From assembly GCA_002338125.1 (NCBI GenBank), contig DDHN01000008.1:113094-176152 (forward strand): DNA of 63,059 bases. Direction: 5' to 3'. This document shows, one piece after another, positions 10,401 through 45,095 of the stretch (position 1 is the stretch's first letter; each line of letters starts with the position of its first letter). This stretch comes from Patescibacteria group bacterium UBA1875. GTDB lineage: Bacteria > Patescibacteriota > CPR2 > UBA1875. The translations under genes and the position numbers were made by a program. The notes beneath the pieces were generated by a model. It made no database searches, was not told the origin of the DNA, and saw nothing but the letters and a program-made list of their open reading frames with translations.

Positions 10401-10955
10401 AAGATAAGGGCCTTACGGGTTGATAATATTGCTGATATTAATATTGCCAGCAATGGTAAGGGGGTAGTTTTAGGAGGGGTAGTTGTTCAGATTCAAAAAA
10501 TATTAACTAGAAAAAACGATCCAATGGCATTCATCCGCTTTGAAGATAAAACTGGCTCTACCGAGTTAATTGTATTCCCAAATACGCTTGAAAAATACCA
10601 ACATTTGATTGTAGAGGGAAAGATACTTTATGTTCGGGGGAAAATTAACAATAAAGACAACCAGCTTAAAGTATTAGTAGATTCGATAGAGGATTTAAAA
10701 ATTAAAGAAGCTAATAACAATGAAACTGTGAATACAAATTTTGTTCACGTTGATGACGTTGCTACAATAATAGTTCCGGAGGGAGTGACTGATACTGATT
10801 TAACGGCTTTGAAGGTTCTTTTAGCTACTCATAAAGGGGATACGGACACATATGTTGTTTTGCCTGGGAACGGTAAAATTAAAATGCCTTTTGGAATTGA
10901 TTTTTCGAACGGAATTACCGACGATATTAATGCTTTACTTTCAAGAAGGGGTTAA
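7476..10955 (+). CDS. dnaE: DNA polymerase III alpha subunit
   Basis: 1159 aa. N-terminal PHP domain (FVHLHVHTHYSLLDG), a polymerase core and a C-terminal OB-fold region. GAGGAG SD. Confidence 0.95.
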   Translation: MSQSIKSNKLVKGGFVHLHVHTHYSLLDGMCKIPQLLDRAKDYGMPAVAITDHGVMYGVVEFLKEARARGIKPIIGCEVYIAPRGMRDKTPKIDTNPSHLVLLAKNEIGYKNLMEMVTEAHLEGYYYKPRIDKELLSKKFEGLIALSSCLHSEIATNLLEKNEKKAQKVLDFYKNLFGDDFYIELQFNPGLPEQDIANKKLLKLAKKNNVKVVASKDVHYIDKDDREAHDALICVQTGKMVSDEDRMRFNSDQSFLSPQEMADAFKDVPEAITNTLEVAEKCEFGDNYKLPFADEKKILIPKFDIPKGKTKRQYLEALVSKGLTQRYKKITKAIKDRAAYELEVIERMKFEDYFLIVADFVNWAKGQGILVGPGRGSAAGSVVSYALGIVDLDPLKYDLLFERFLNPDRISMPDIDMDFADDRRSEVIEYTVEKYGKDKVAQIITFGTMAARNAVRDTGRVLGMSYAEVDEVAKAIPSNIPLAVSVKEVPELAAFYNQGGNYKKLLDLAQRLEGVARHSSTHAAGVVVAQEPLVEFTPLQKAVKGDVSWQTQYEMHAIEDLGLLKMDFLGLSNLTILKNALRIIKKVYGKEINLYELPDDDKKTYKLMSQGETTGVFQLESSGMKRYLKELKPSCFEDVIAMVAMYRPGPLKSGMVDEFIERKHGKRKVTYPHPLMENALSDTYGVIIYQEQVMQLSKDMAGFTGGQADTLRKAMGKKIKDLMAKLKVEFIEGCVKNKIDKKIAVKTFEDMEKFAEYGFNKSHAACYAQIAYWTAYLKAHFPSAFMAALLTSDYSDIDRIAIEISEAQAMGIEVLGPDVNESFSEFGVAKDSGQIRYGLIAIKNVGNGIVEAILDARKEGGKFTGIEDFCMRVKAEEVNKKVMEALIKSGAFDSLSDRSKLLYNLDKILAFTQKVQKGAIDGQMGLFGEEAKNQVAFHLELIEPEEELTTEEKLAFEKELLGIYFSEHPLDAHQDKIRALRVDNIADINIASNGKGVVLGGVVVQIQKILTRKNDPMAFIRFEDKTGSTELIVFPNTLEKYQHLIVEGKILYVRGKINNKDNQLKVLVDSIEDLKIKEANNNETVNTNFVHVDDVATIIVPEGVTDTDLTALKVLLATHKGDTDTYVVLPGNGKIKMPFGIDFSNGITDDINALLSRRG

Positions 10956-10977
10956 TAACCATAAAAAGAAAAAAGTA

Positions 10978-11006
10978 TTGACTTATATGCAATATTTTGG
11001 TATATT
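10978..11006 (+). promoter_or_regulatory. Sigma70-type promoter of island 1
   Basis: TTGACT (10978-10983), a 17-nt spacer, then TATATT (11001-11006) with an upstream TG (extended -10). Confidence 0.6.
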
Positions 11007-11013
11007 ATAGCGC

Positions 11014-11055
11014 ATCCGCTTCGGTGGATTGAACAATTTTCGACCTGTTAGGTCG
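11014..11055 (+). promoter_or_regulatory. Island 1 5' leader with two short hairpins
   Basis: ATCCGC-UUCG-GTGGAT (11014-11029) and CGACC-TGTTA-GGTCG (11041-11055). An AAGGAG SD lies at 11083-11088. Confidence 0.5.
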
Positions 11056-11093
11056 TTTGAACATTGAAAACATACCTAGTCTAAGGAGATATC

Positions 11094-11306
11094 ATGCGTT
11101 TTGCACTTCTTCCGCTTCTAGCAGCATCGATCATGCTCTTGGTGGGTATTGTCTTGTGTACAGATTGGAGGCCAGTTTCAAGGCTATTCAAGTCTCTGTA
11201 TCAAGACATTACTAATCCTAACCCGCTTTTCCCGGGACCATTCACTCGGTTCACGGGTATCATGCTTGGAACAGACATCGGCGAAGAGTCCAAGAAAGGA
11301 AGGTGA
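11094..11306 (+). CDS. Island 1 ORF-a: 70-aa protein with an N-terminal signal/anchor helix
   Basis: An AAGGAG SD lies 5 nt upstream of the ATG. The N-terminus (MRFALLPLLAASIMLLVGIVLC) is hydrophobic. No family recognised. Confidence 0.55.
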   Translation: MRFALLPLLAASIMLLVGIVLCTDWRPVSRLFKSLYQDITNPNPLFPGPFTRFTGIMLGTDIGEESKKGR

Positions 11307-11382
11307 AGGCGATGTATTTGGGTCCGTAACATTTCCTCATCGTTTGCGACAGAAAGGAAAACAACGATGAGGGAGGGGCAAC

Positions 11383-11652
11383 ATGAAGGGTTCAAGGTTC
11401 GACCATCGGGGTTACGAGATTTATCGCAACCCAGTTCCGGTAGAAATACTGGAAGAGATCGAAGGTAAGTTGACTCCTAGGGAGACAACTGGCTACGAGT
11501 TCGTTGTCTATCATGACGGTCTGCCGCTAGACATCAATGTCACGGCTCTTAATCGTCATCTTGGCCTCAAAGAGGTCAAGGAGTGGATCGATAGGCAGTT
11601 TGCAACACAAGCCGCAGCCGAGACCGACATTGTGTCGGCTCAGTCGAACTAG
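11383..11652 (+). CDS. Island 1 ORF-b: 89-aa soluble hypothetical protein
   Basis: A GAGGGAGGGG SD (11369-11378) precedes the ATG. No family recognised. Confidence 0.55.
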   Translation: MKGSRFDHRGYEIYRNPVPVEILEEIEGKLTPRETTGYEFVVYHDGLPLDINVTALNRHLGLKEVKEWIDRQFATQAAAETDIVSAQSN

Positions 11653-11661
11653 GGGAGGCAG

Positions 11662-12123
11662 ATGATGAAAACGGAAGAGAAGGTCGCATTTCTTGCCGAG
11701 ATGATCGAGGACTTCAATGCCCACGGTTGTCCAGGAAAGGCAGATACCGACAAGGGTCTCCACTATGCAAGGGAGATCATCGACTCGCTCCATCATTGCG
11801 AAAAGCCTGAGGAAGGGGCCGTATATCTCATTACGGCTCTTAGCTTCAAGGCCATTGTCGCGATGGAGGCAGGCTGCCATGCTGATGCGGCAGACTGTCC
11901 TTGTTTCGAAAGCTGCTACGTGTGGACACACGCAGCAGCTGCCAACCCATCCCGATCAATAGTCTCTCTGGTTAGCAAAGGGAGACGCTGCGAGATGGGT
12001 AATGTCGAGTGTTCACTGAACCTCGACAACCCTGGCCGAAGGCATCGTGAGAGCGAATCGCTTCTGGATGTTGATAAGGCCATGGCCGAGAGCTATGTTC
12101 CCGAATCCGGGGCGGCGTGGTAG
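11662..12123 (+). CDS. Island 1 ORF-c: 153-aa Cys/His-rich hypothetical protein
   Basis: A GGGGAGG SD (11652-11658) overlaps the ORF-b stop. It has 8 Cys, including HGC, HHC, GCH and DCPCFESC. Confidence 0.6.
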   Translation: MMKTEEKVAFLAEMIEDFNAHGCPGKADTDKGLHYAREIIDSLHHCEKPEEGAVYLITALSFKAIVAMEAGCHADAADCPCFESCYVWTHAAAANPSRSIVSLVSKGRRCEMGNVECSLNLDNPGRRHRESESLLDVDKAMAESYVPESGAAW

Positions 12124-12125
12124 CG

Positions 12126-12359
12126 ATGAACATAGAAATCATCGCCATGTGTATGGGTCGTGAGGGAACGGTTCTGCACGAGCCGTACACAGCAGCGAAT
12201 GTTGCTGCTGGTATCGTCCGTTCCGGTGGACGTGTCCTCGGAGTCGTCAAGTCAAACGTCGAAGGGGAGCCGATATTCCGGAAAACGGTAGAAATCGGTT
12301 CACCAGAAGAGATCAAGGAGTTCATTCTCGCTTTCTCAGGAGCTGAGGAGGGGGCATGA
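12126..12359 (+). CDS. Island 1 ORF-d: 77-aa hypothetical protein
   Basis: The ATG lies 2 nt after the ORF-c stop (an alternative GTG is at 12117). The stop overlaps the ORF-e start (ATGA). Confidence 0.5.
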   Translation: MNIEIIAMCMGREGTVLHEPYTAANVAAGIVRSGGRVLGVVKSNVEGEPIFRKTVEIGSPEEIKEFILAFSGAEEGA

Positions 12360-12565
12360 AGTGGTTCTGGGGTATCGTCTCCTTGGCAGTAATAACCTTA
12401 ATCGGTTTCGCTGCTGTTTGGGACCCAACCATTAGAGAGGCCGTAAGCGTTATTGCCTACTTGGCAATGGTTGCTGGCTTCTGGTGGATGGGGGTGAAAT
12501 TTGTTGGTCTTTGCGACGAAGTGAAGGCTAACAGTTTCGCAGCTTTCCATCGTGACAAGGACTAG
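12356..12565 (+). CDS. Island 1 ORF-e: 69-aa two-TM membrane protein
   Basis: A GAGGAGGGGG SD lies immediately upstream. There are two hydrophobic helices (FWGIVSLAVITLIGFAAVW and AVSVIAYLAMVAGFWWMGVKFVGL). Confidence 0.6.
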   Translation: MKWFWGIVSLAVITLIGFAAVWDPTIREAVSVIAYLAMVAGFWWMGVKFVGLCDEVKANSFAAFHRDKD

Positions 12566-12820
12566 GTGTTATCAGGCTCTGTTTCATACAGAGACAGCAC
12601 CTACTAGCAGATTGACTTCCGGGTAATACCTGGAGGCCGGATGCAGAGGGGGTTTTAGAGTTGTGAGCCCCTGCATCCGGCCGGTACTGGTCGTGCCAAC
12701 CCGTTCTCACAACGGGTACGACACTAAGGTACCGGTCGGTCTCCGAGTTAAAAACTCGGTCTGCGTCTAGGGATGACAGTTTTGCTTTGCGCGGCAAGGC
12801 TGTTATCCCTGATCATTCTA
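12566..12820 (+). ncRNA. Hairpin-dense non-coding 3' region of island 1 (candidate structured RNA)
   Basis: Six consecutive stable helices: 12577-12593, 12616-12636, 12636-12681, 12681-12735 (three stacked segments), 12743-12759 and 12769-12810. There is no plausible ORF with an SD. Confidence 0.45.
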
Positions 12821-12856
12821 CGGGCCCCAGTCTTCGGACGGGGCCCGTTCACTTTT
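12821..12856 (+). terminator. Island 1 rho-independent terminator
   Basis: CGGGCCCC-A-GTC-UUCG-GAC-GGGGCCCG (11-bp stem, UUCG loop) followed by TTCACTTTT. Confidence 0.75.
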
Positions 12857-12862
12857 AAAATA

Positions 12863-12891
12863 TTGACGAAAGTTTGTTTTTTTGATAATAT
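12863..12891 (+). promoter_or_regulatory. rplS promoter
   Basis: TTGACG, a 17-nt spacer, then TAATAT. The ATG is only about 12 nt downstream of the -10 and has no SD. Confidence 0.5.
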
Positions 12892-12903
12892 CTTCTGGCA
12901 ACT

Positions 12904-13626
12904 ATGAATACGCAATTATTAGAAAAAATAGAAAAAAGCCAGCTCAAGAAAGTTCCGGAAGTTCGTCCCGGTGATCTTGTTCGTGTTCATCAAAAGATTA
13001 AAGAAGGCAAAAAAGAAAGAATTCAGATATTTGAAGGAGTCGTTTTAAGGGTTAGGGGCGGTGGTCTTAGAAAATCTTTTATAGTAAGAAAGATATCCTT
13101 TGGTATTGGGGTTGAAAAGAGTTTCCTAATGCATGCTCCTAATATTATTAAAGTTGAAATCAAGAAAAGAGCGAAGGTCAGAAGGGCCTATTTGACTTAC
13201 CTTAGAAGACTGACGGGGAAAAAGGCTCGTCTTAAAGATGAACAATTTGATTCTTTGGTAGTAAATGTAGAGCCAGAGCCAATCGAAACTGATAAAGAAT
13301 CCGAAAAGGGAGAAAAAACCTCTGATAGTGAGATTGCTGAAATCGATCCAGCAAAAACAGCTAATGTGGAAGTAGTTGAAGTCCCTTTATCGGAAGTAGA
13401 AAAAGAAGAGATAAAACAAGCAGAAGCTGAAGATGAGACAAAAGAAGGTCTAGATGAAGATGATCATCAAAAAATCGAGATTGAAGAAGTAGAAAAAGGT
13501 ATCGAAGAGGCCGAAAAAGATCTAGAAAAAGGCAAGACTAAAAAAACCGATCAAGCCGAAAAAGAAAAAGAAGACATTTCCCAAGAAGAAATTAAAGAAG
13601 AAATAAAAGAAGAAAAAGAGGCTTAA
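12904..13626 (+). CDS. rplS: Ribosomal protein L19 with a long acidic C-terminal extension
   Basis: L19 core (RPGDLVRVHQKIKEGKKERIQIFEGVVL...), followed by about 125 Glu/Lys-rich residues. Confidence 0.9.
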   Translation: MNTQLLEKIEKSQLKKVPEVRPGDLVRVHQKIKEGKKERIQIFEGVVLRVRGGGLRKSFIVRKISFGIGVEKSFLMHAPNIIKVEIKKRAKVRRAYLTYLRRLTGKKARLKDEQFDSLVVNVEPEPIETDKESEKGEKTSDSEIAEIDPAKTANVEVVEVPLSEVEKEEIKQAEAEDETKEGLDEDDHQKIEIEEVEKGIEEAEKDLEKGKTKKTDQAEKEKEDISQEEIKEEIKEEKEA

Positions 13627-26167: not shown

Positions 26168-28222
26168 ATGTCTTTGACGCTATTATCAAATGTTTCTGAG
26201 ATACCGGGGGTTGGAGATTTCTATGCTAAAAAGCTAGCTAAACTAGAAATAAAAACTACTCGTGATTTATTATTATACTTTCCGCGCCGTTGGGAGGATT
26301 ATTCGAAAATAACCAATATCGCAGCTGTTAAGTCTGGAGAACAAGTTTCGGTAAGAGGGAAAGTGGTTGATATTATTACCAAAAGAAGTCGAAGAGGGAT
26401 AACGGTAACTGAAATAATTATTGCTGATAATACAGGGAGTGCTAAAGCTGTATGGTTTAATCAACCATTTATTGAAAACACTATTCGCAAGGGAGAAGAA
26501 ATATATTTAGCTGGCAAGATGGAATGGGGCTTTGGGCAATTGAATTTTGTTTCTCCGGCTTATGAAAAAGTAAAAGAAGCCGAAGATGAACTCCGACATA
26601 CGGGTCGGATTGTTCCGATCTATCCTGAAACTGCTGGATTAAGTTCAAAATGGATTCGTCAAAAAGTTGGGTTGCTAACTAAAATTATCTATAATTTAAA
26701 AGATCATTTACCTGAAGTGATAAAGAAAAAACATGATTTGTTGGAGCTTTCAGCAGCGGTTCGGACAATCCATTTTCCGGAGAATATGGAAGAGTTAAAA
26801 AGAGCTCAAAAAAGGTTTTTGTATGATGATCTTTTTTGCCTCCTTTTATCTGTTCTATCAAACAAAAAAGAGATTGAAGGTAGTAGAGCCGTTTCTGTCA
26901 AATATGATGAAAAAATAGGAAAAAAATTTGTTGAGGATCTCCCGTTTGATTTAACCGACTCTCAGCGGAAAGCCGCTTGGGAAATTTTAAAGGATCTTAG
27001 TAAAAATACACCAATGAATCGACTCCTTGAAGGAGACGTCGGTAGTGGCAAAACAGTAGTTTGTGCCATGGCCGCTTTAATGGTTGGTAATGCCGGTTAT
27101 CAAACAGCACTTCTTGCTCCGACTGAAATCTTGGCTCGCCAGCATTATGAAAGTTTTAAAAAAATGCTACCAGAGAATATTAAGATAGTCTTATTAACAG
27201 GTTCGATAAAAGAAAAAGAAAAAAAGGAAATCTTATCTGAGATAGAGAATGGCGAAGCCCAAATTGTAATTGGGACACATGCAATTTTTTCAGAAAATGT
27301 TAATTTTTGGACTTTGGCTTTTGTAATTGTTGATGAACAACATCGTTTTGGGGTAGAACAGAGAAGAAAACTCAAAATAGCAAATGGGGAAGCAGGAATT
27401 ATGCCTCACTTTCTCTCAATGAGTGCTACTCCAATTCCGAGGACACTAGCGATTACGGTTTTCGGAGATTTATCTCTCTCTGTTTTAACTGATATGCCGC
27501 CAGGAAGAGAGAAGGTAGATACCTATGTCGTGCCACCATACAAGCGGGAAGACGGGTATGGATTTATCGAAAGAAAGATTAAAGAGGGTCGACAAATTTT
27601 TGTAATTTGTCCGTTAATTTCAGCCTCTGATAAATTAGGGGTTAAGTCAGCTGAGGAAGAGGCTAAAAATCTTGCAGTTATTTATCCAAAAAGAAAAATA
27701 GGCTTATTACACGGTAAGTTAAAGTCTGAGGATAAGGAGAAAGTAATGAATAGCTTTAAAAAGGGAGAGATTGATATTTTGGTTTCCACTTCCGTAGTTG
27801 AAGTAGGGGTTGACGTCCCTAATGCTTCGGTGATGGTTATCGAAGGAGCGGAAAGGTTTGGCTTGGCTCAACTCCATCAATTCCGGGGGCGAGTGGGGCG
27901 GGGAAGGCATAAATCATATTGTTTTCTATTCACCGAATCAAAACTTGGGAAGACTCTTGAGAGATTAAATGCTCTCGTTAATTTAAATAGTGGTTTTGAT
28001 CTTGCCGAAAAAGACCTCGAAATTAGAGGGCCAGGGGAATTACTTGGAATAAAACAATCGGGGAAGATAGACCAAACAATGGTTAAAGTTTTATCAGATC
28101 CGAGGATTATAAAAGAGGTAAAAGAAAGTGCCGAGAATTTTTTAAATAATAACAACCTTAATGATTATCCTAGACTCTTAGAGAAAGTAGCTGAATTCGA
28201 GATGGCGGCTAGATTGGAATAA
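26168..28222 (+). CDS. recG: ATP-dependent DNA helicase RecG
   Basis: Wedge/OB N-terminal domain and helicase motifs DVGSGKT, DEQHRFG and QLHQFRGRVGRG. Confidence 0.9.
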   Translation: MSLTLLSNVSEIPGVGDFYAKKLAKLEIKTTRDLLLYFPRRWEDYSKITNIAAVKSGEQVSVRGKVVDIITKRSRRGITVTEIIIADNTGSAKAVWFNQPFIENTIRKGEEIYLAGKMEWGFGQLNFVSPAYEKVKEAEDELRHTGRIVPIYPETAGLSSKWIRQKVGLLTKIIYNLKDHLPEVIKKKHDLLELSAAVRTIHFPENMEELKRAQKRFLYDDLFCLLLSVLSNKKEIEGSRAVSVKYDEKIGKKFVEDLPFDLTDSQRKAAWEILKDLSKNTPMNRLLEGDVGSGKTVVCAMAALMVGNAGYQTALLAPTEILARQHYESFKKMLPENIKIVLLTGSIKEKEKKEILSEIENGEAQIVIGTHAIFSENVNFWTLAFVIVDEQHRFGVEQRRKLKIANGEAGIMPHFLSMSATPIPRTLAITVFGDLSLSVLTDMPPGREKVDTYVVPPYKREDGYGFIERKIKEGRQIFVICPLISASDKLGVKSAEEEAKNLAVIYPKRKIGLLHGKLKSEDKEKVMNSFKKGEIDILVSTSVVEVGVDVPNASVMVIEGAERFGLAQLHQFRGRVGRGRHKSYCFLFTESKLGKTLERLNALVNLNSGFDLAEKDLEIRGPGELLGIKQSGKIDQTMVKVLSDPRIIKEVKESAENFLNNNNLNDYPRLLEKVAEFEMAARLE

Positions 28223-28227
28223 TATTA

Positions 28228-28256
28228 TTGACAAAAATTAAATTTATGATATTATA
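28228..28256 (+). promoter_or_regulatory. Sigma70-type promoter of island 2
   Basis: TTGACA (28228-28233), then TGaTATTAT (-10 at 28250-28255), starting 6 nt after the recG stop. Confidence 0.6.
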
Positions 28257-28265
28257 GCGATATTA

Positions 28266-28302
28266 TCCGGTGCTAATACCGGAAGTCTCGATTGTGGTCG
28301 AG
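28266..28302 (+). promoter_or_regulatory. Island 2 5' leader with two short hairpins
   Basis: TCCGGT-GCTAAT-ACCGGA (28266-28283) and CTCGA-TTGTGG-TCGAG (28287-28302). An AAGGAAG SD lies at 28311-28317. Confidence 0.5.
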
Positions 28303-28325
28303 TTGACATTAAGGAAGTGATTTGA

Positions 28326-29258
28326 GTGTCTAGTGAGGGCAACGTCTTTGTTGTACGTCTCGACTTCCAGCTCAGCCCTTCGATCGACTTGTTCGATCTT
28401 GAAGACGGAGAAGGAAGGGTCTTCCTGAATCATGCCCCTGAGGTCATTAAAGAGAAGGGAGAATTTGTCCTCGTGCAATCAGAGGGACAATTTGGTTTCT
28501 CCCTTATCCCAGCTGCACCGATGAAAGCTGGGTACAAGAGGGTTGATTCCATCAAGAAGCTTGTGGAGTTGGTGCTTGAGTTTGGGCTGTGTAAGCCCTT
28601 CGTCCCGCGTGGCTACCATGGAATTGTCGAAAAGGGTTTGAGCGATCAGCTCCATAAGGCCTACAACGAGTGCCGATTCGGTTCCTACGTCAAGCTTCCT
28701 GATTCAAGTGTGGTGTTGGTGGTCAGCGATGAAGCTCTTGACCCAGGAACGTTTGTTGAGGCTCGGCGAGCCTGGAACAACGTTCTCGTTGTTGGGCGAG
28801 CTGAGTTCGAGAGCCGGCAACCATTCCGACACGAGAACTGGGCTAGCTTTGTAAGCGCTCTGATGGCTAGCTACCCTCAGCAAGTCAAAGGGCACTTGAC
28901 TCCTCGTAAGCCGCCAAGGAGGATTCAGGGAACTTGGGCCGGTCCCGACCTCGACTACATTAACCGTCGGGGGCAAGCCTCAACTCGTTTGCTTGTTGAC
29001 GGACAAGAAGAAGGGTCTGTCGTTACCGTGTATTTCACGCGTTGCGACAAAAACCCTTCCGTTCCGATCAGAACTGGTGAGGCTGTTGAGGTTTGGTATG
29101 CCGGTAAAGGTAACATTGCGGTTATCCCTTACGCTGGCCGAACCACTCAAGTCCTGCGACCAAGAGAGCTAGTCAGAGAGCTGGGAGTGCAAAGAGACAG
29201 TCTCGATGAGAGAAAACTCTCATCATACGACAACGTTCGCGTGGTCTACACTTCCTGA
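28326..29258 (+). CDS. Island 2 ORF: 310-aa soluble hypothetical protein
   Basis: The GTG start lies 8 nt downstream of AAGGAAG. There is no TM helix or signal peptide. The protein is beta-rich and Arg-rich, and no family is recognised. Confidence 0.65.
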   Translation: MSSEGNVFVVRLDFQLSPSIDLFDLEDGEGRVFLNHAPEVIKEKGEFVLVQSEGQFGFSLIPAAPMKAGYKRVDSIKKLVELVLEFGLCKPFVPRGYHGIVEKGLSDQLHKAYNECRFGSYVKLPDSSVVLVVSDEALDPGTFVEARRAWNNVLVVGRAEFESRQPFRHENWASFVSALMASYPQQVKGHLTPRKPPRRIQGTWAGPDLDYINRRGQASTRLLVDGQEEGSVVTVYFTRCDKNPSVPIRTGEAVEVWYAGKGNIAVIPYAGRTTQVLRPRELVRELGVQRDSLDERKLSSYDNVRVVYTS

Positions 29259-29271
29259 AGTAGTCCCTTGT

Positions 29272-29300
29272 AACGGGCGCCTATCGAGGCGCCCGTTTTC
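29272..29300 (+). terminator. Island 2 rho-independent terminator
   Basis: AACGGGCGCC-TATCGA-GGCGCCCGTT followed by TTC and a T-rich tract. Confidence 0.75.
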
Positions 29301-40780: not shown

Positions 40781-42871
40781 ATGGCTAGAGATTATAGTTT
40801 GGAAAAAACAAGGAATATTGGCATAATTGCGCATATAGATGCTGGTAAAACAACCGTGACCGAAGGAATTTTGTATCTAACTGGTAGGACTCATAAAATT
40901 GGAGAAGTCCATGAAGGTGAGGCTACAATGGACTGGATGGAACAAGAGCGGGAGCGGGGAATCACCATTACTTCGGCTGCGACAACTTGTTTTTGGCAAG
41001 ACAATCGAATAAATATTATCGACACCCCTGGGCACGTAGATTTTACTGTTGAGGTTGAACGGTCTCTTAGAGTTCTTGACGGAGCTGTTACTATTTTTGA
41101 TGGAAAAATGGGAGTTGAGCCTCAGTCAGAAACTGTTTGGCGTCAGGCCGATAAGTATCATGTCCCTAGAATGTGTTTTATTAACAAAATCAATCAAACT
41201 GGTGGCGATTTCTATAAATCTCTAGACTCAATAAAAGAGCGATTGTCAAAAAACGCCTACCCAATTCAAGTACCAATTGGTGTGGAGCAAAGCATTAACG
41301 GTGTTGTCGATTTGGTGGAATTGAAATCATATACATATAATGAATATCATGACAAAAAACTAGTTGTAGGCGATGTCCCTGAGGATATGAAGGAAAAATG
41401 CGAAAAACTTCGAGAAGAACTTTTAGAGAAAGCGGTAGAAGCAGATGAATCTTTGATGGAAAAATATCTTGGAGGTGAAGATTTAACTATTGAAGAATTC
41501 AAGACTGCTATAAGGAAGAGTGTTCTTGCTGGTGACTTTTTCCCGGTTCTTGGTGGAGATGGACGAGGGGTGATTGTCGAAACTCTCCTTGATGCTATTG
41601 TCGATTACCTACCAACTCCACTTGATGTCCCTCCTGTGACTGGTCTTGACCCTAAAACTGGCGAAGAGATAGTAAGAAAGGCTAGTGACGAAGAACCTTT
41701 CGCTGCATTAGCATTTAAGATAGCTACAGACCCGTTCGTTGGAAAGTTAGCATTTTTTAGGGTCTACTCTGGTGTAATTAAAGCCGGCTCTTATGTATAT
41801 AACTCTACTACGGGTGATAAAGAACGTTTAGGCCGAATAGTTAGGCTTCACGCTAATCATCGTGAAGATGTAGACGAAGTTTATGCCGGAGAAATTGCTG
41901 CTGCTGTTGGCTTGAAGGGAACAACAACAGGTGATACTTTGTGTGACCCATCTAATCCAATTGTTTTAGAGGCAATTACTTTTCCTGACCCAGTTATAAC
42001 TATTGCCATTGAGCCAAAGACAAAAGCAGACCAGGAAAAGATGGGTATTGCTTTGGCTAAACTAGCCGAAGAAGATCCGACCTTTGTAGTAAAATCAGAT
42101 GAAGAAACAGGGCAGACCGTAATTTCTGGTATGGGTGAGCTTCATCTAGAAATTATCGTCGATAGAATGAAGCGAGAATTTAAGGTAGAAGCCAATATCG
42201 GTAAACCGCAAGTTGCCTACAAAGAAACGATTAAAGAAAAAGCCCAGGCTGAAGGTAAATATATTAAACAGTCCGGAGGAAGAGGTCAGTATGGACATGT
42301 TTGGCTTGAGCTTGAGCCACTAGAAGCTGGTTCTGGTTTTGAGTTTGTTGATAAGATTGTTGGTGGTGCTGTTCCGAAAGAATTCATAGGGCCAACCCAA
42401 CAAGGTATTGTTGAGGCAATGGCCAATGGTGTAATTGCCGGATATCCGGTAGTTGATGTTCGAGCAACTTTGTATGATGGCTCTTTTCACGATGTTGACT
42501 CATCAGAAATGGCCTTTAAGATTGCCGGGAGCATGGCATTTCAGTCAGGTTTCAAAAAAGCAAAACCGATTATTCTTGAACCTGTTATGAAGGTCGAAGT
42601 ACTTACGCCCGAAGAGTTTATGGGTGATGTTATGGGAGATTTGAATTCAAAGAGGGGTAAGATTCAAAATATGGAAGATAGAGCCCAAACAAAAGTAATT
42701 GATGCGATGGTACCTTTATCGGAAATGTTTGGTTATGCTACTCAGCTACGCTCTATAACTCAGGGTCGAGCCTCATATGTTATGGAATTTGATCATTATG
42801 AAGAGGTTCCTGGTAATATAGCGGAAGAGATAAAAGCGGCTCGGGGAACAAAAGAAGCAACCGAAGAATAG
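40781..42871 (+). CDS. fusA: Elongation factor G
   Basis: G motifs AHIDAGKTT and DTPGH. 696 aa. Confidence 0.95.
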
Positions 42872-42875
42872 AATA

Positions 42876-42908
42876 AATAATGAGGCCAAGTCAGGCCTCA
42901 TTATTTTA
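42876..42908 (+). terminator. Terminator after fusA
   Basis: 12-bp stem AATAATGAGGCC/GGCCTCATTATT with a 6-nt loop, followed by TTT. Confidence 0.7.
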
Positions 42909-42933
42909 CGAAGCTGTTAATTTAGGCTATAAT
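42905..42933 (+). promoter_or_regulatory. Sigma70-type promoter of island 3
   Basis: TTTACG, a 17-nt spacer, then TATAAT (42928-42933). Confidence 0.5.
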
Positions 42934-42976
42934 ATTGATAACGTTAATACGAGAAACTTGAAGGCAGGTGAGGAAG

Positions 42977-43129
42977 ATGCTTTCGAGAACAAGAGAAAGA
43001 GTAGCAAACATTATCGCATGCTCTTTGCTCTCGCTCTTTTTCCTCATCCTTAAACAATTAGTTCTGTCAGCTGTTACCGGCTTGATTGTCTTTTGTGATA
43101 GCTTTTCAAAGCCAACGTGGAAGGAGTGA
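42977..43129 (+). CDS. Island 3 ORF-a: 50-aa hydrophobic peptide (absent from the ORF track)
   Basis: GGTGAGGAAG SD. MLSRTRERVANIIACSLLSLFFLILKQLVLSAVTGLIVFCDSFSKPTWKE, with 1-2 TM segments. Confidence 0.5.
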   Translation: MLSRTRERVANIIACSLLSLFFLILKQLVLSAVTGLIVFCDSFSKPTWKE

Positions 43130-43131
43130 TT

Positions 43132-43278
43132 ATGGGTCTCCAAATGCTTGGTATTATTCTAATGATTGTCTTTATGGCTATCGTGGGTGGTTTGTTGACA
43201 AGAGTCTACGTCAAACGCCTTGATGAACAGGCCGCAATGTACCTCGATCATGAGGACCAGATCATCTCTGAGCTTTGA
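43132..43278 (+). CDS. Island 3 ORF-b: 48-aa single-TM peptide (absent from the ORF track)
   Basis: The AAGGAG SD overlaps the ORF-a stop and the ATG lies 2 nt after that stop. MGLQMLGIILMIVFMAIVGGLL is followed by an acidic tail. Confidence 0.5.
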   Translation: MGLQMLGIILMIVFMAIVGGLLTRVYVKRLDEQAAMYLDHEDQIISEL

Positions 43279-43290
43279 GGGGGGAGTGTG

Positions 43291-43611
43291 ATGACCAGAA
43301 AGAAAGCTGACAGGCTGTGCGCTAAAGGCTTGGCAGCTGACCCAGACTATTGCTTGTATGATGAAGGAAGTGTCTGCCCGTGTGAACGGTACTACCAGAA
43401 ACTGACAAGGCCTTCGCTTGGTCGATTACTTCTTTCAACTATTACGTTGCAAAAGGATGAAACCGCGTCGTGTGTTGGTTGTTTGACGGAATCTCAGACA
43501 GCGTGTCCGTCATGTGTCAACAGTTCGGCTCACGAACGGTTGCTGGCAGCCTGTCCCCCGATCCGAGGAGGTTCTGCCGATGAAGGAATTCATTGCTTCG
43601 GGTGGCGGTAG
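43291..43611 (+). CDS. Island 3 ORF-c: 106-aa Cys-rich protein
   Basis: A GAGGGGGGAG SD precedes ATG 43291 (a GTG lies at 43288). It has 10 Cys, including VCPC, CVGC and CPSC. Confidence 0.6.
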   Translation: MTRKKADRLCAKGLAADPDYCLYDEGSVCPCERYYQKLTRPSLGRLLLSTITLQKDETASCVGCLTESQTACPSCVNSSAHERLLAACPPIRGGSADEGIHCFGWR

Positions 43612-43693
43612 CTACCTTCTTGTTGGTATCACGGTCCTTGTTTGTCTGACTGGTGGGGCGATTCATTACAATCGAATTCGTCCTCGGCGCTAA
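43580..43693 (+). CDS. Island 3 ORF-d: 37-aa single-TM peptide (absent from the ORF track)
   Basis: GAGGAGG SD at 43565-43571. It overlaps the ORF-c end by 32 nt. MKEFIASGGGSYLLVGITVLVCLTGGAIHYNRIRPRR. Confidence 0.45.
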   Translation: MKEFIASGGGSYLLVGITVLVCLTGGAIHYNRIRPRR

Positions 43694-43734: not shown

Positions 43735-43776
43735 GGCCCCGGTTACAATATTGTAATCCGGGGCCTTCTTTATATT
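43735..43776 (+). terminator. Island 3 rho-independent terminator
   Basis: GGCCCCGG-TTACAA..TTGTAA-(T)-CCGGGGCC extended hairpin followed by TTCTTTATATT. Confidence 0.75.
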
Positions 43777-43786
43777 CAAAAAACCC

Positions 43787-43815
43787 TTGCATATTTAAAA
43801 ATTATTAGGTAGAAT
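43787..43815 (+). promoter_or_regulatory. tuf promoter
   Basis: TTGCAT, a 17-nt spacer, then TAGAAT, followed by a leader of about 100 nt with an AAAGGAGGA SD. Confidence 0.5.
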
Positions 43816-43916
43816 ACGTCATGTAACTCAAATAAATGAGTCAAAGCCACTTTTGTGGATAAGTTTTATTGTCTAAATGCGGGAAAATTACAATTACCTT
43901 AAAAGGAGGATTACAG

Positions 43917-45095
43917 ATGACACAATTTGATCGTTCCAAACCGCACGTTAACGTTGGTACAATCGGCCACGTTGACCATGGTAAGACTACTCTTACCGCT
44001 GCTATTACCAAAGTCCTTTCAGAAGATGGTAAGGCAGATTTTACAGCTTTTGACCAAATCGACAAGGCACCTGAGGAGAGAGAGCGAGGAATCACAATCG
44101 CTACTGCGCACGTTGAGTATGAATCTGATAAACGTCACTATGCTCATGTCGATTGTCCAGGACACGCAGACTATGTTAAAAACATGATTACTGGAGCAGC
44201 TCAAATGGACGGAGCAATACTAGTGGTTGCTGCTACTGATGGGCCTATGCCCCAGACCAGAGAGCACTTGCTTCTTGCTAAGCAGGTTAACGTTCCAGCT
44301 GTTGTTGTTTTTATGAATAAAGTAGACATGGTTCAAGATGAAGAAATGCTTGACTTGGTAGAGATGGAAATTAGAGAACTTCTTACTAAATATGAATTTG
44401 ATGGCGATAACGCTAAGATAATTCGTGGCTCTGCTCTTAAAGCGCTTGAAGGGGATGACAAGTACAAAGAGAGCATTAAAGAACTTATTACTGCTCTTGA
44501 TGAAGCTATCCCAGAGCCAAAGAGAGATATCGATAAGCCTTTCAAGATGCCAGTTGAAGATGTCTTTTCCATTAAAGGCCGAGGTACGGTAGCTACTGGT
44601 AGAATTGAGCAAGGTGTAATTAAAGTTAACGAAGAAGTAGAGATTGTTGGTATTAAAGATACTCGAAAGACTGTTGTTACCGGGGTTGAAATGTTTAAAA
44701 AGACTCTTGATCAAGGTCAAGCTGGTGATAATGCCGGATTACTTCTTCGAGGCATCGAAAAAGATGATATTGAACGTGGTATGGTTCTTGCTAAACCTGG
44801 TTCAATCACACCTCATACTGAATTTGAAGCCAAGATATATGTTCTTACCAAAGAAGAAGGCGGACGTCATACCCCATTCTTCAAAGGCTACAAACCTCAA
44901 TTCTATATCGGCACAACCGACGTTACTGGTGAAGTAATATTACCAGAAGGAACTGAAATGGTAATGCCTGGTGATAGTGTGGAAGTAACTGTTAAGCTAC
45001 TTCAACCAATCGCCATGGACGAAGGAACAAGATTTGCCATCCGTGAAGGTGGCCGAACGGTTGGAGCTGGTGCCGTCTCTAAAATCGTCAAATAA
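43917..45095 (+). CDS. tuf: Elongation factor Tu
   Basis: [26 protein letters not shown] and DCPGH. The ATG at 43917 follows the AAAGGAGGA SD. The track ORF starts earlier, at 43869. Confidence 0.95.

Follow-up and report, generated by a model that had tools for sequence, protein, structure and literature searches.

A clade-specific operon of two predicted small membrane peptides and a cysteine-rich protein between fusA and tuf in Patescibacteria

Patescibacteria have tiny genomes, and most of their lineage-specific genes are uncharacterised. We analysed a 63,059-nucleotide (nt) stretch of DNA from Patescibacteria group bacterium UBA1875 (assembly GCA_002338125.1, contig DDHN01000008.1, positions 113,094 to 176,152 of the forward strand), hereafter the window, which corresponds to the rpoBC-str-S10-spc ribosomal supercluster of a 621-kb assembly in 16 contigs with 37% G+C. 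Here fusA (40781-42871) and tuf (43917-45095) are separated by a 1,045-nt spacer that holds a cassette of four small open reading frames (ORFs), designated a to d (Table 1). A sequence-only reading made earlier had described this place as three tiny transmembrane (TM) peptides around a ten-cysteine protein, and its coordinates, Shine-Dalgarno sequences (SDs), 2-nt gap, 32-nt overlap, cysteine count and TM helices were all confirmed. The cassette is equipped with a promoter-like site of its own, with four strong ribosome-binding sites and with terminator hairpins on both flanks, and comparison with related genomes indicates that b, c and d, with a variable ORF-a in front of them in the window, form a separate, clade-specific operon in the fusA-tuf spacer.

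Table 1. Features of the fusA-tuf spacer (positions are those of the window; aa, amino acids)
Feature	Position	Strand	Description
fusA terminator hairpin	42875-42906	+	perfect 13-bp arms, 6-nt loop, A/T runs on flanks
Cassette promoter-like site	42905-42933	+	TTTACG-17-TATAAT, 10/12 matches; assigned by consensus match alone
ORF-a	42977-43129	+	50 aa; SD GGTGAGGAAG at 42967-42976; basic N-terminus, two adjacent hydrophobic stretches; coding status unproven
ORF-b	43132-43278	+	48 aa; AAGGAG SD within last codons of ORF-a; 2-nt gap
ORF-c	43291-43611	+	106 aa, 10 Cys, no TM segment; SD GAGGGGGGAG
ORF-d	43580-43693	+	37 aa; SD GAGGAGG; 32-nt overlap with ORF-c
Cassette terminator	43735-43772	+	palindrome GGCCCCGGTTACAAT/ATTGTAATCCGGGGCC (43735-43765), then TTCTTTAT T-run; GC-rich
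tuf promoter and conserved leader	43787-43916	+	TTGCAT-17-TAGAAT at 43787-43815; downstream border of the cassette

The strength of each SD was calculated as the energy of the duplex between the 18 nt upstream of the start and the anti-SD tail. The resulting values were -14.2, -10.6, -11.7 and -12.8 kcal/mol for ORF-a, b, c and d, respectively. A value of -10.6 kcal/mol was reached by 1.4% of 6,000 random ATGs of the genome and by 7.5% of the first ATGs of its long frames, the median of the latter being -3.8 kcal/mol; judged by these energies, the translation-initiation style of the cassette appears to differ from that of most of the host. Kyte-Doolittle windows placed TM segments in ORF-a (9-25 and 28-44), ORF-b and ORF-d (one each), and none in ORF-c. 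ORF-b and ORF-c lie in the same frame, 159 nt apart from start to start, with a single TGA (43276-43278) between them. We place the start of ORF-c at ATG 43291 and not at GTG 43288, because its homologues share the N-terminus MT(A)R.A. The short gap between a and b and the overlap of c and d in the window, together with ATGA overlaps between genes in two relatives (loci L045 and L046), point to translational coupling along the cassette.

The comparative evidence began with ORF-c. An earlier word-based protein search with ORF-c alone had found nothing, and an exhaustive phmmer search against 1.84 billion representatives gave one match, P0001, which aligned over the full length with 36% identity (BLASTP E = 2e-12) and had the same MT.R.A..LC N-terminus. 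The metagenome contig that encodes P0001 carries, in order, the C-terminus of EF-G, a terminator, a near-consensus promoter, a 48-aa TM gene, P0001 itself, an overlapping 43-aa TM frame, a terminator, and the tuf promoter and leader. A four-member profile search then yielded P0003, P0004 and P0005, each flanked by the same small genes right behind fusA. In the metagenomic relatives L041/L042, L043/L044, L045 and L046, b-c-d triads directly follow fusA (rpsL-rpsG-fusA-cassette in L043); the d gene is uncalled by annotation in L041. At least five organisms have the three genes in that order immediately behind fusA, and about eight related Patescibacteria carry the cassette or related units at this position. 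Conservation of the small frames in homologous islands, on which the sequence-only reading had made its proposal depend, was thereby found for b, c and d in triads, alignments and profiles; the four-gene arrangement that it described contracted to a conserved core of three, ORF-a being without a homologue. No second copy or paralogue of the cassette was found elsewhere in the genome, separate searches for related loci in metagenome contigs and genome contigs found nothing, and comparison of the spacers revealed no conservation of the cassette across genera at the DNA level.

Three family members, G001, G003 and G004, showed fusA-tuf distances of 0.8-1.6 kb, each filled by a GC-rich promoter-to-terminator unit with small ORFs and G-rich SDs. 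The G004 spacer encodes a 106-aa protein, in which a TM helix is followed by CIDC-x7-CTQC, and a 58-aa TM peptide. Among the five small ORFs of the G003 spacer is a 79-aa protein with a TM helix and CYSC-x6-CLSC, overlapped by a 52-aa basic-tailed TM peptide. These two units are diverged versions of the cassette in which a b-like TM anchor is fused to the CxxC...CxxC finger of c, and in both a second small TM peptide follows the fused protein (d-like in G003). P0001 matched the G003 protein with E = 7e-8 and ORF-c the G004 protein with 3e-5; the b profile matched the N-terminal anchor of the 106-aa G004 protein with E = 2.4e-4 (797 ORFs) and the G003 anchor more weakly. The G001 spacer holds small TM and Cys ORFs with no demonstrated homology to those of the window. 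In other families of the order the fusA-tuf spacers measure 107, 167 and 262 nt and are without a cassette. Of 32 genomes of the class, 3 had a member of the c family; about 370 others sampled across the phylum had none, and the weak matches there (E about 1e-3 per genome) were rejected as RecR and unrelated Cys-rich proteins. In G007, from another family of the order, a fusA-tuf spacer of ~1 kb (L016 1463-2454) carries an unrelated 132-aa multi-TM ORF of host-like composition, with a strongly AT-rich segment (GC 0.20-0.28) beside it. In this order, genes for small membrane proteins may have settled repeatedly at the fusA-tuf junction.

Each gene of the core was then judged on its own alignment. 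Leave-one-out profiles, built without the window sequences and run against 16,778 six-frame ORFs of the genome, returned ORF-c (E = 1.3e-14) and ORF-b (E = 1.2e-4) as the top genome matches of their respective profiles. Across the seven aligned c sequences C61, C64, C72 and C75 are invariant, with 6-17 residues between the two CxxC pairs, and the five members of full length have, in addition, C10, a C-x4-7-C-x-C group, TFQKDxSAAC[IV]GC and a C-terminal AIEALGG in common. Eight cysteines of ORF-c are thus conserved in the family (C10; C21-x7-C29-x-C31; C61-x2-C64-x7-C72-x2-C75), and two, C88 and C103, are lineage-specific. The five b sequences have in common the TM helix, K(G) and a tail of the form ...K..(RYE)MYxDHExQ[IV]; Smith-Waterman scores of ORF-b with each of its four homologues exceeded those of composition-matched shuffles (p <= 8e-4), which b-versus-d controls did not. 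ORF-d ends in a tail HYNRIRPRR that is basic next to the membrane, its relatives having LLWRHHYW[KR]NPRKKR, and the gene in the d position overlaps or abuts the c stop in L041, L043, L045, L046 and G003. ORF-d matched the G003 peptide (BLASTP 1e-3) and the d of L045 (shuffle p <= 2e-4), and the d genes of G003 and L041 matched each other with 3e-8. On this comparative evidence b, c and d are judged to be conserved protein-coding genes, with moderate support for the gene status of ORF-d.

Two observations concern the nucleotide level of these genes. The SD of d is the GGAGG/GGGGG that encodes the C-terminal ...LGG/...RGG of the c family (window 43555-43580; L045 1800-1821), and since the end of c doubles as the SD of d, part of this protein motif may be a nucleotide-level constraint. 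L041 and L042, assemblies from different sample archives, are identical except that the poly-G SD tract of the ORF-c homologue has seven G in L041 (874-889) and eight in L042 (150-166); the window has six G at 43281-43286. The difference in poly-G length could reflect slippage that tunes the translation of c, or an assembly error.

ORF-a has no homologue in any relative. Its slot is empty in L041, L045 and L046, where the conserved leader runs straight to b. Kinship of ORF-a with a 66-aa TM ORF in the same slot of L043 (3635-3835) was ruled out (p = 0.76), as was, by comparison, kinship with the first ORF of G001 or with b and d. The G001 cassette opens with a 64-aa TM ORF (L009 1581-1775). 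Having no comparative support, ORF-a is therefore assigned to a variable first slot of the cassette. Its own SD and its hydrophobicity speak for it, and its coding status is unproven; it could be a gene of recent origin, a leader that is translated, or no gene at all. Small genes could be born and lost in this first slot, which lies between the cassette leader and b.

The flanking signals recur with the genes. A hairpin analogous to the fusA terminator lies directly 3' of fusA in the relatives, near-consensus promoters occupy the same relative place (TTGAAA-N-TATAAT in L041, TATATAAT in L043 and TTGTATAAT in L045), and GC-rich hairpins equivalent to the cassette terminator lie 3' of d in L041, L045, G003 and G004. 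Within the tuf leader a hairpin at 43847-43858 is followed by GTTTTATTGTC at 43863-43873, and the leader is the sole part of the spacer that matches family relatives at the DNA level (43779-43882; 90% to G001, 76% to G004). The pairing of this hairpin, which stands just 5' of the invariant GTTTTATTGTC, is kept by compensatory changes in six genomes (CCAC/GTGG, CCGTC/GACGG, CCACGT/ACGTGG, CCGCT/AGCGG). The leader was not found in four other families of the order, and Rfam has no match to it; a regulatory function for tuf, specific to this lineage, is possible. Two more GC-rich (0.47-0.51) orphan cassettes lie between core genes in the window, at 10955-12904 (dnaE/rplS) and 28222-29300 (recG/next gene), and their ORFs have no Pfam or PHROGs match. 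Homology of ORF-c to the 153-aa Cys-rich protein of another island of the window (island 1) was ruled out: BLASTP gave no alignment, and the 'CPC' that they have in common is CLC in P0001.

No scan of a to d and their relatives against Pfam, PHROGs, NCBIfam or PADLOC yielded a match that reached or approached the threshold, and PDB sequence and profile searches returned Cys-pattern noise alone. There was no match by tblastn in a phage collection of 50,697 records and no Rfam match for the cassette above any gathering score, even at E <= 1. The sub-threshold matches of ORF-a were to phrog_6384 (holin-type; E = 0.11) and, on a hydrophobic stretch, to the PADLOC candidate PDC-M53B (E = 0.0024). 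Across these collections, b, c and d appear as three undescribed small-protein families with clear motifs.

Counts of K/R residues flanking the helices showed a K/R-rich side after the TM helix in both b and d, and topology prediction, one of the checks that the sequence-only reading had proposed, gave an N-out/C-in orientation for both. Because the K/R-rich sides follow the helix, the tails of b and d are predicted to be cytoplasmic, and likewise the fingers of the fused forms in G003 and G004. We propose that b would be an N-out/C-in single-pass peptide with a conserved acidic/aromatic cytoplasmic tail (MYxDHExQI), and d a second such peptide with a basic/aromatic tail (WRHHYWKNPRKKR). Protein c is predicted to be cytoplasmic, since it has no signal peptide or TM helix and since the finger of the G003 and G004 proteins follows the TM helix on its K/R-rich inside face; it had been described earlier as soluble or periplasmic, of which the first term is supported and the second is not. 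Its eight conserved Cys would form two Cys4 sites, one made of C and Cx4-7CxC and the other of CxxC-x6-17-CxxC. Cytoplasmic four-Cys clusters in CxxC pairs usually bind structural zinc, and structural zinc is the most likely occupant of both sites of c.

In this model c would be held at the inner membrane face by the b tail, the d tail or both. The main argument for such a tether is that G003 and G004 fuse a b-like TM anchor to the C-terminal CxxC...CxxC finger of c. Throughout the family the b-like anchor is either fused to the finger or encoded just upstream of it, which is a hint that b and c interact. We lean, by a modest degree, towards the structural model as a whole, in which b and d would be single-pass membrane peptides with cytoplasmic tails on which the Cys8 protein c docks, and the earlier idea of a module of small membrane peptides with a Cys-rich soluble partner is supported in this form. 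As to its role, we speculate that the complex could serve as a membrane-tethered zinc-finger adaptor or sensor, for example as a thiol/zinc switch, as an anchor for a cytoplasmic partner or by sequestering a partner. We favour such a role over that of a lytic or toxic module, and hold any specific role to be much less probable than the structural model.

The cassette stands out from its hosts in its G+C content at third codon positions (GC3), which exceeded that of the host by 0.12-0.4 in all seven genomes measured. In the window the four ORFs have a GC3 of 0.42-0.51 versus 0.30 in fusA, tuf, rpoB, dnaE and recG, and the corresponding values for cassette and host are 0.67-0.77 versus 0.50 in L041, 0.60-0.69 versus 0.38-0.45 in L043, 0.69-0.74 versus 0.51 in L045, 0.62-0.70 versus 0.51 in L046, 0.56-0.57 versus 0.17 in G004, and mostly about 0.53 versus 0.31-0.37 in G003. 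At the same time, the c proteins show 44-55% identity between hosts in which the EF-G C-termini agree to 89-97%. As the divergence of c lies far above that of EF-G, the copies would be old and not recent imports, yet they are GC3-rich, a combination for which recent import does not account. To call the cassette an 'island', if that implies recent import, is doubtful for a unit that is deeply diverged and sits at the same site in eight genomes. Tentatively, and with considerable doubt of our own, we hypothesize that b-c-d is a new clade-restricted, membrane-tethered Cys8 module with two metal sites that became fixed in the str operon of one Patescibacteria lineage, and that its GC3 has been actively kept high over a long time by an unrecognised process. 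Such a process could be, for example, selection on the mRNA itself, or GC-biased gene conversion at a recombination hot spot that has the two most conserved genes of the genome on its flanks. If this is true, b-c-d and the two other GC-rich orphan cassettes of the window would together mark out, within reduced AT-rich genomes, a separate compartment of accessory genes whose GC richness persists.

Several points weigh against the main interpretation, that of a resident operon whose Cys8 protein is tethered to the membrane. Metal binding, membrane location and the contacts among b, c and d are all inferred, and the adaptor or sensor role is speculative. AlphaFold2 models of c were unreliable, with predicted local distance difference test (pLDDT) scores of 43.6 and 51.7 from 3- and 7-sequence alignments, and no ribbon was seen. 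ORF-d was not significant with its leave-one-out profile (E = 0.17), and its tail in the window is without the Trp residues of its relatives. The GC3 excess, and a similarity among cassettes that is uncorrelated with EF-G similarity, fit a mobile or exchanged element equally well.

Such an element would be a moron-like accessory cassette drawn from a higher-GC mobile pool of phages or plasmids of these bacteria and repeatedly imported or exchanged at the fusA-tuf spacer by recombination between the highly conserved flanks; its membrane peptides would serve in exclusion of, or defence against, phages or other invaders. Its independent promoter-to-terminator organisation, the GC3 excess in every genome measured, spacer gene content that differs between genomes and the weak match of ORF-a to PDC-M53B would suit this account, as would the failure of cassette similarity to track EF-G: G001 is close to the window by EF-Tu and EF-G, yet its spacer ORFs are unlike those of the window. 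We nevertheless consider it unlikely, as the site is always the same, the c copies are old by comparison with EF-G and still GC3-rich, no integrase, transposase, flanking repeat or attachment site was found, nor a second copy in the genome, and neither the phage records nor PHROGs contained a match. Even less probable, in our view, is a membrane-damaging system of the holin-like or toxin-antitoxin-like kind, close to the holin- or toxin-like peptides with partners that the sequence-only reading had suggested. At least one of the TM peptides a, b and d would then make the membrane permeable, with c as its neutraliser or regulator. Neither the cassette of the window nor any of its seven relatives contains an endolysin, a lysis cassette or another lysis gene, and there was no significant match to holin, toxin or antitoxin families, the best holin model being phrog_6384 for ORF-a, at the sub-threshold E-value given above, with none in Pfam for a, b or d. 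Like holins, a, b and d have at least one TM helix and a charged hydrophilic C-terminus, features that are generic to many small membrane proteins, and like type I toxins they are small hydrophobic peptides; as to the overlapping antisense or divergent small RNA by which such toxins are controlled, minus-strand promoter-like sites were weak only (9/12 matches), and no Rfam small RNA scored above threshold. The tight translational coupling is typical of paired toxin and antidote genes, the weak holin-type match of ORF-a would also suit this account, and a toxin-like cassette would be addictive, which would explain its retention in tiny genomes. Set against this, the tails of b and d carry specific conserved motifs beyond a hydrophobic and charged composition, the anchor-finger fusion in G003 and G004 suits a tether better, the genes do not stand alone as expected of toxins or holins, and promoter and SD signals as strong and constitutive-looking as these would be dangerous in a toxin gene.

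Two further explanations question the genes themselves. The common frame of b and c could mean that they are one gene for a 159-aa TM-anchored Cys protein, its TGA being read through or a recent nonsense mutation, and G003 and G004 do encode single TM-plus-finger proteins whose anchors match the b profile. In L041/L042, however, b and c are distinct genes in different frames, 163 and 164 nt apart, and in L045/L046 their frames likewise differ, with an ATGA overlap; TGA serves as a normal stop codon in this genome (80 of 417 long frames), and c has its own SD (-11.7 kcal/mol) and a conserved N-terminus exactly at ATG 43291. Read-through was rejected on these grounds, and we regard a single b-c gene as very improbable. 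Structured RNAs are often found in GC-rich islands between the genes of AT-rich genomes, and the small frames might also be chance ORFs in such an RNA, to which the mRNA fold scores lend modest weight (z = -3.84 in the window and -2.0 in L045; 20 shuffles each, terminator hairpin included), or the 73-aa minus-strand ORF might be the real gene. It is the protein frames, starts, stops, Cys positions and tail motifs that are conserved across genera and the DNA that is not, and Rfam gave no match. The minus-strand ORF, for its part, proved to have the TTG start and the lack of an SD (-0.1 kcal/mol) reported for it earlier, and it covers ORF-a, the sole part of the cassette that has no counterpart in relatives. 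We give this explanation the least credence of all: the comparisons contradict it for b, c and d, and it may still apply to the ORF-a region.

A strongly signalled three-gene operon at a fixed site inside a translation-factor operon is likely to matter to these cells, and automated annotation largely misses it, since a, b and d fall below common length cut-offs. The natural anchor-finger fusion predicts binding partners, and the GC3 excess of a deeply diverged, site-fixed cassette offers a test case for selection versus biased gene conversion versus repeated import.

With respect to its setting, the rpoBC-str-S10-spc-alpha cluster is among the most stable bacterial gene arrays, and multigene insertions between its operons have been described in Gammaproteobacteria and Bacilli (PMC6735719, PMC8046335). 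As in those cases, extra genes break an otherwise stable cluster; here, in contrast, a small operon lies inside the str unit, and fusA and tuf have gained their own terminator and promoter. The cassette resembles phage morons as a self-contained transcription unit of small uncharacterised proteins with a composition unlike its surroundings. It differs from them in lying between core chromosomal fusA and tuf and not in a prophage, at a site fixed across genera and with no phage homologues, and no phage genes were found in the supercluster of the window. An integron-type cassette, which would call for an attC-like recombination site and a nearby integrase, was rejected: no flanking direct or inverted repeats were found beyond the terminator hairpins, there is no second copy in the genome, and the units come with promoters of their own, which integron cassettes do not.

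The predicted CxxC-x6-17-CxxC site of c is like C4 zinc ribbons and fingers, having two CxxC knuckles with a short hairpin between them and a short hairpin-like insert in the longer members. Its spacing resembles that of the RecR finger, CxxC-x8-CxxC, and RecR was picked up by the profile on the Cys pattern alone. Unlike established zinc ribbons, c is matched by no zinc-ribbon Pfam model, PDB chain or confident fold, its zinc binding being a prediction, and it has a second site of unusual form (C...Cx4-7CxC). With ZAS anti-sigma factors it would share a cytoplasmic Cys-rich metal site, here a predicted one, held at the membrane by a TM helix, with the topology reversed in the fused forms, where the TM helix comes first and the finger after. 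Membership in the ZAS group itself was rejected, as there is no H-x3-C-x2-C, the stretch that leads into the first CxxC reads (T/Q)-(S/P)-A-(A/S)-C and has no His at position -4, no zf-HC2 Pfam match was found, and no sigma-factor gene is adjacent in the eight loci, the neighbours being fusA and tuf. A ZAS-type working mode, by sequestration or as a redox switch, is plausible for b-c-d.

Small bitopic membrane proteins have been reviewed for Gram-positives (PMC10730256). The b and d peptides have no sequence relation to accessory or tether proteins such as AcrZ, KdpF, CydX and MgtS, and their putative partner is a soluble Cys8 protein, flanked by two different peptides, and not a transporter or oxidase. 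Like those proteins, they are 37-55 aa long, with one TM helix and a short conserved cytoplasmic tail, and would be co-transcribed and translationally coupled with their partner.

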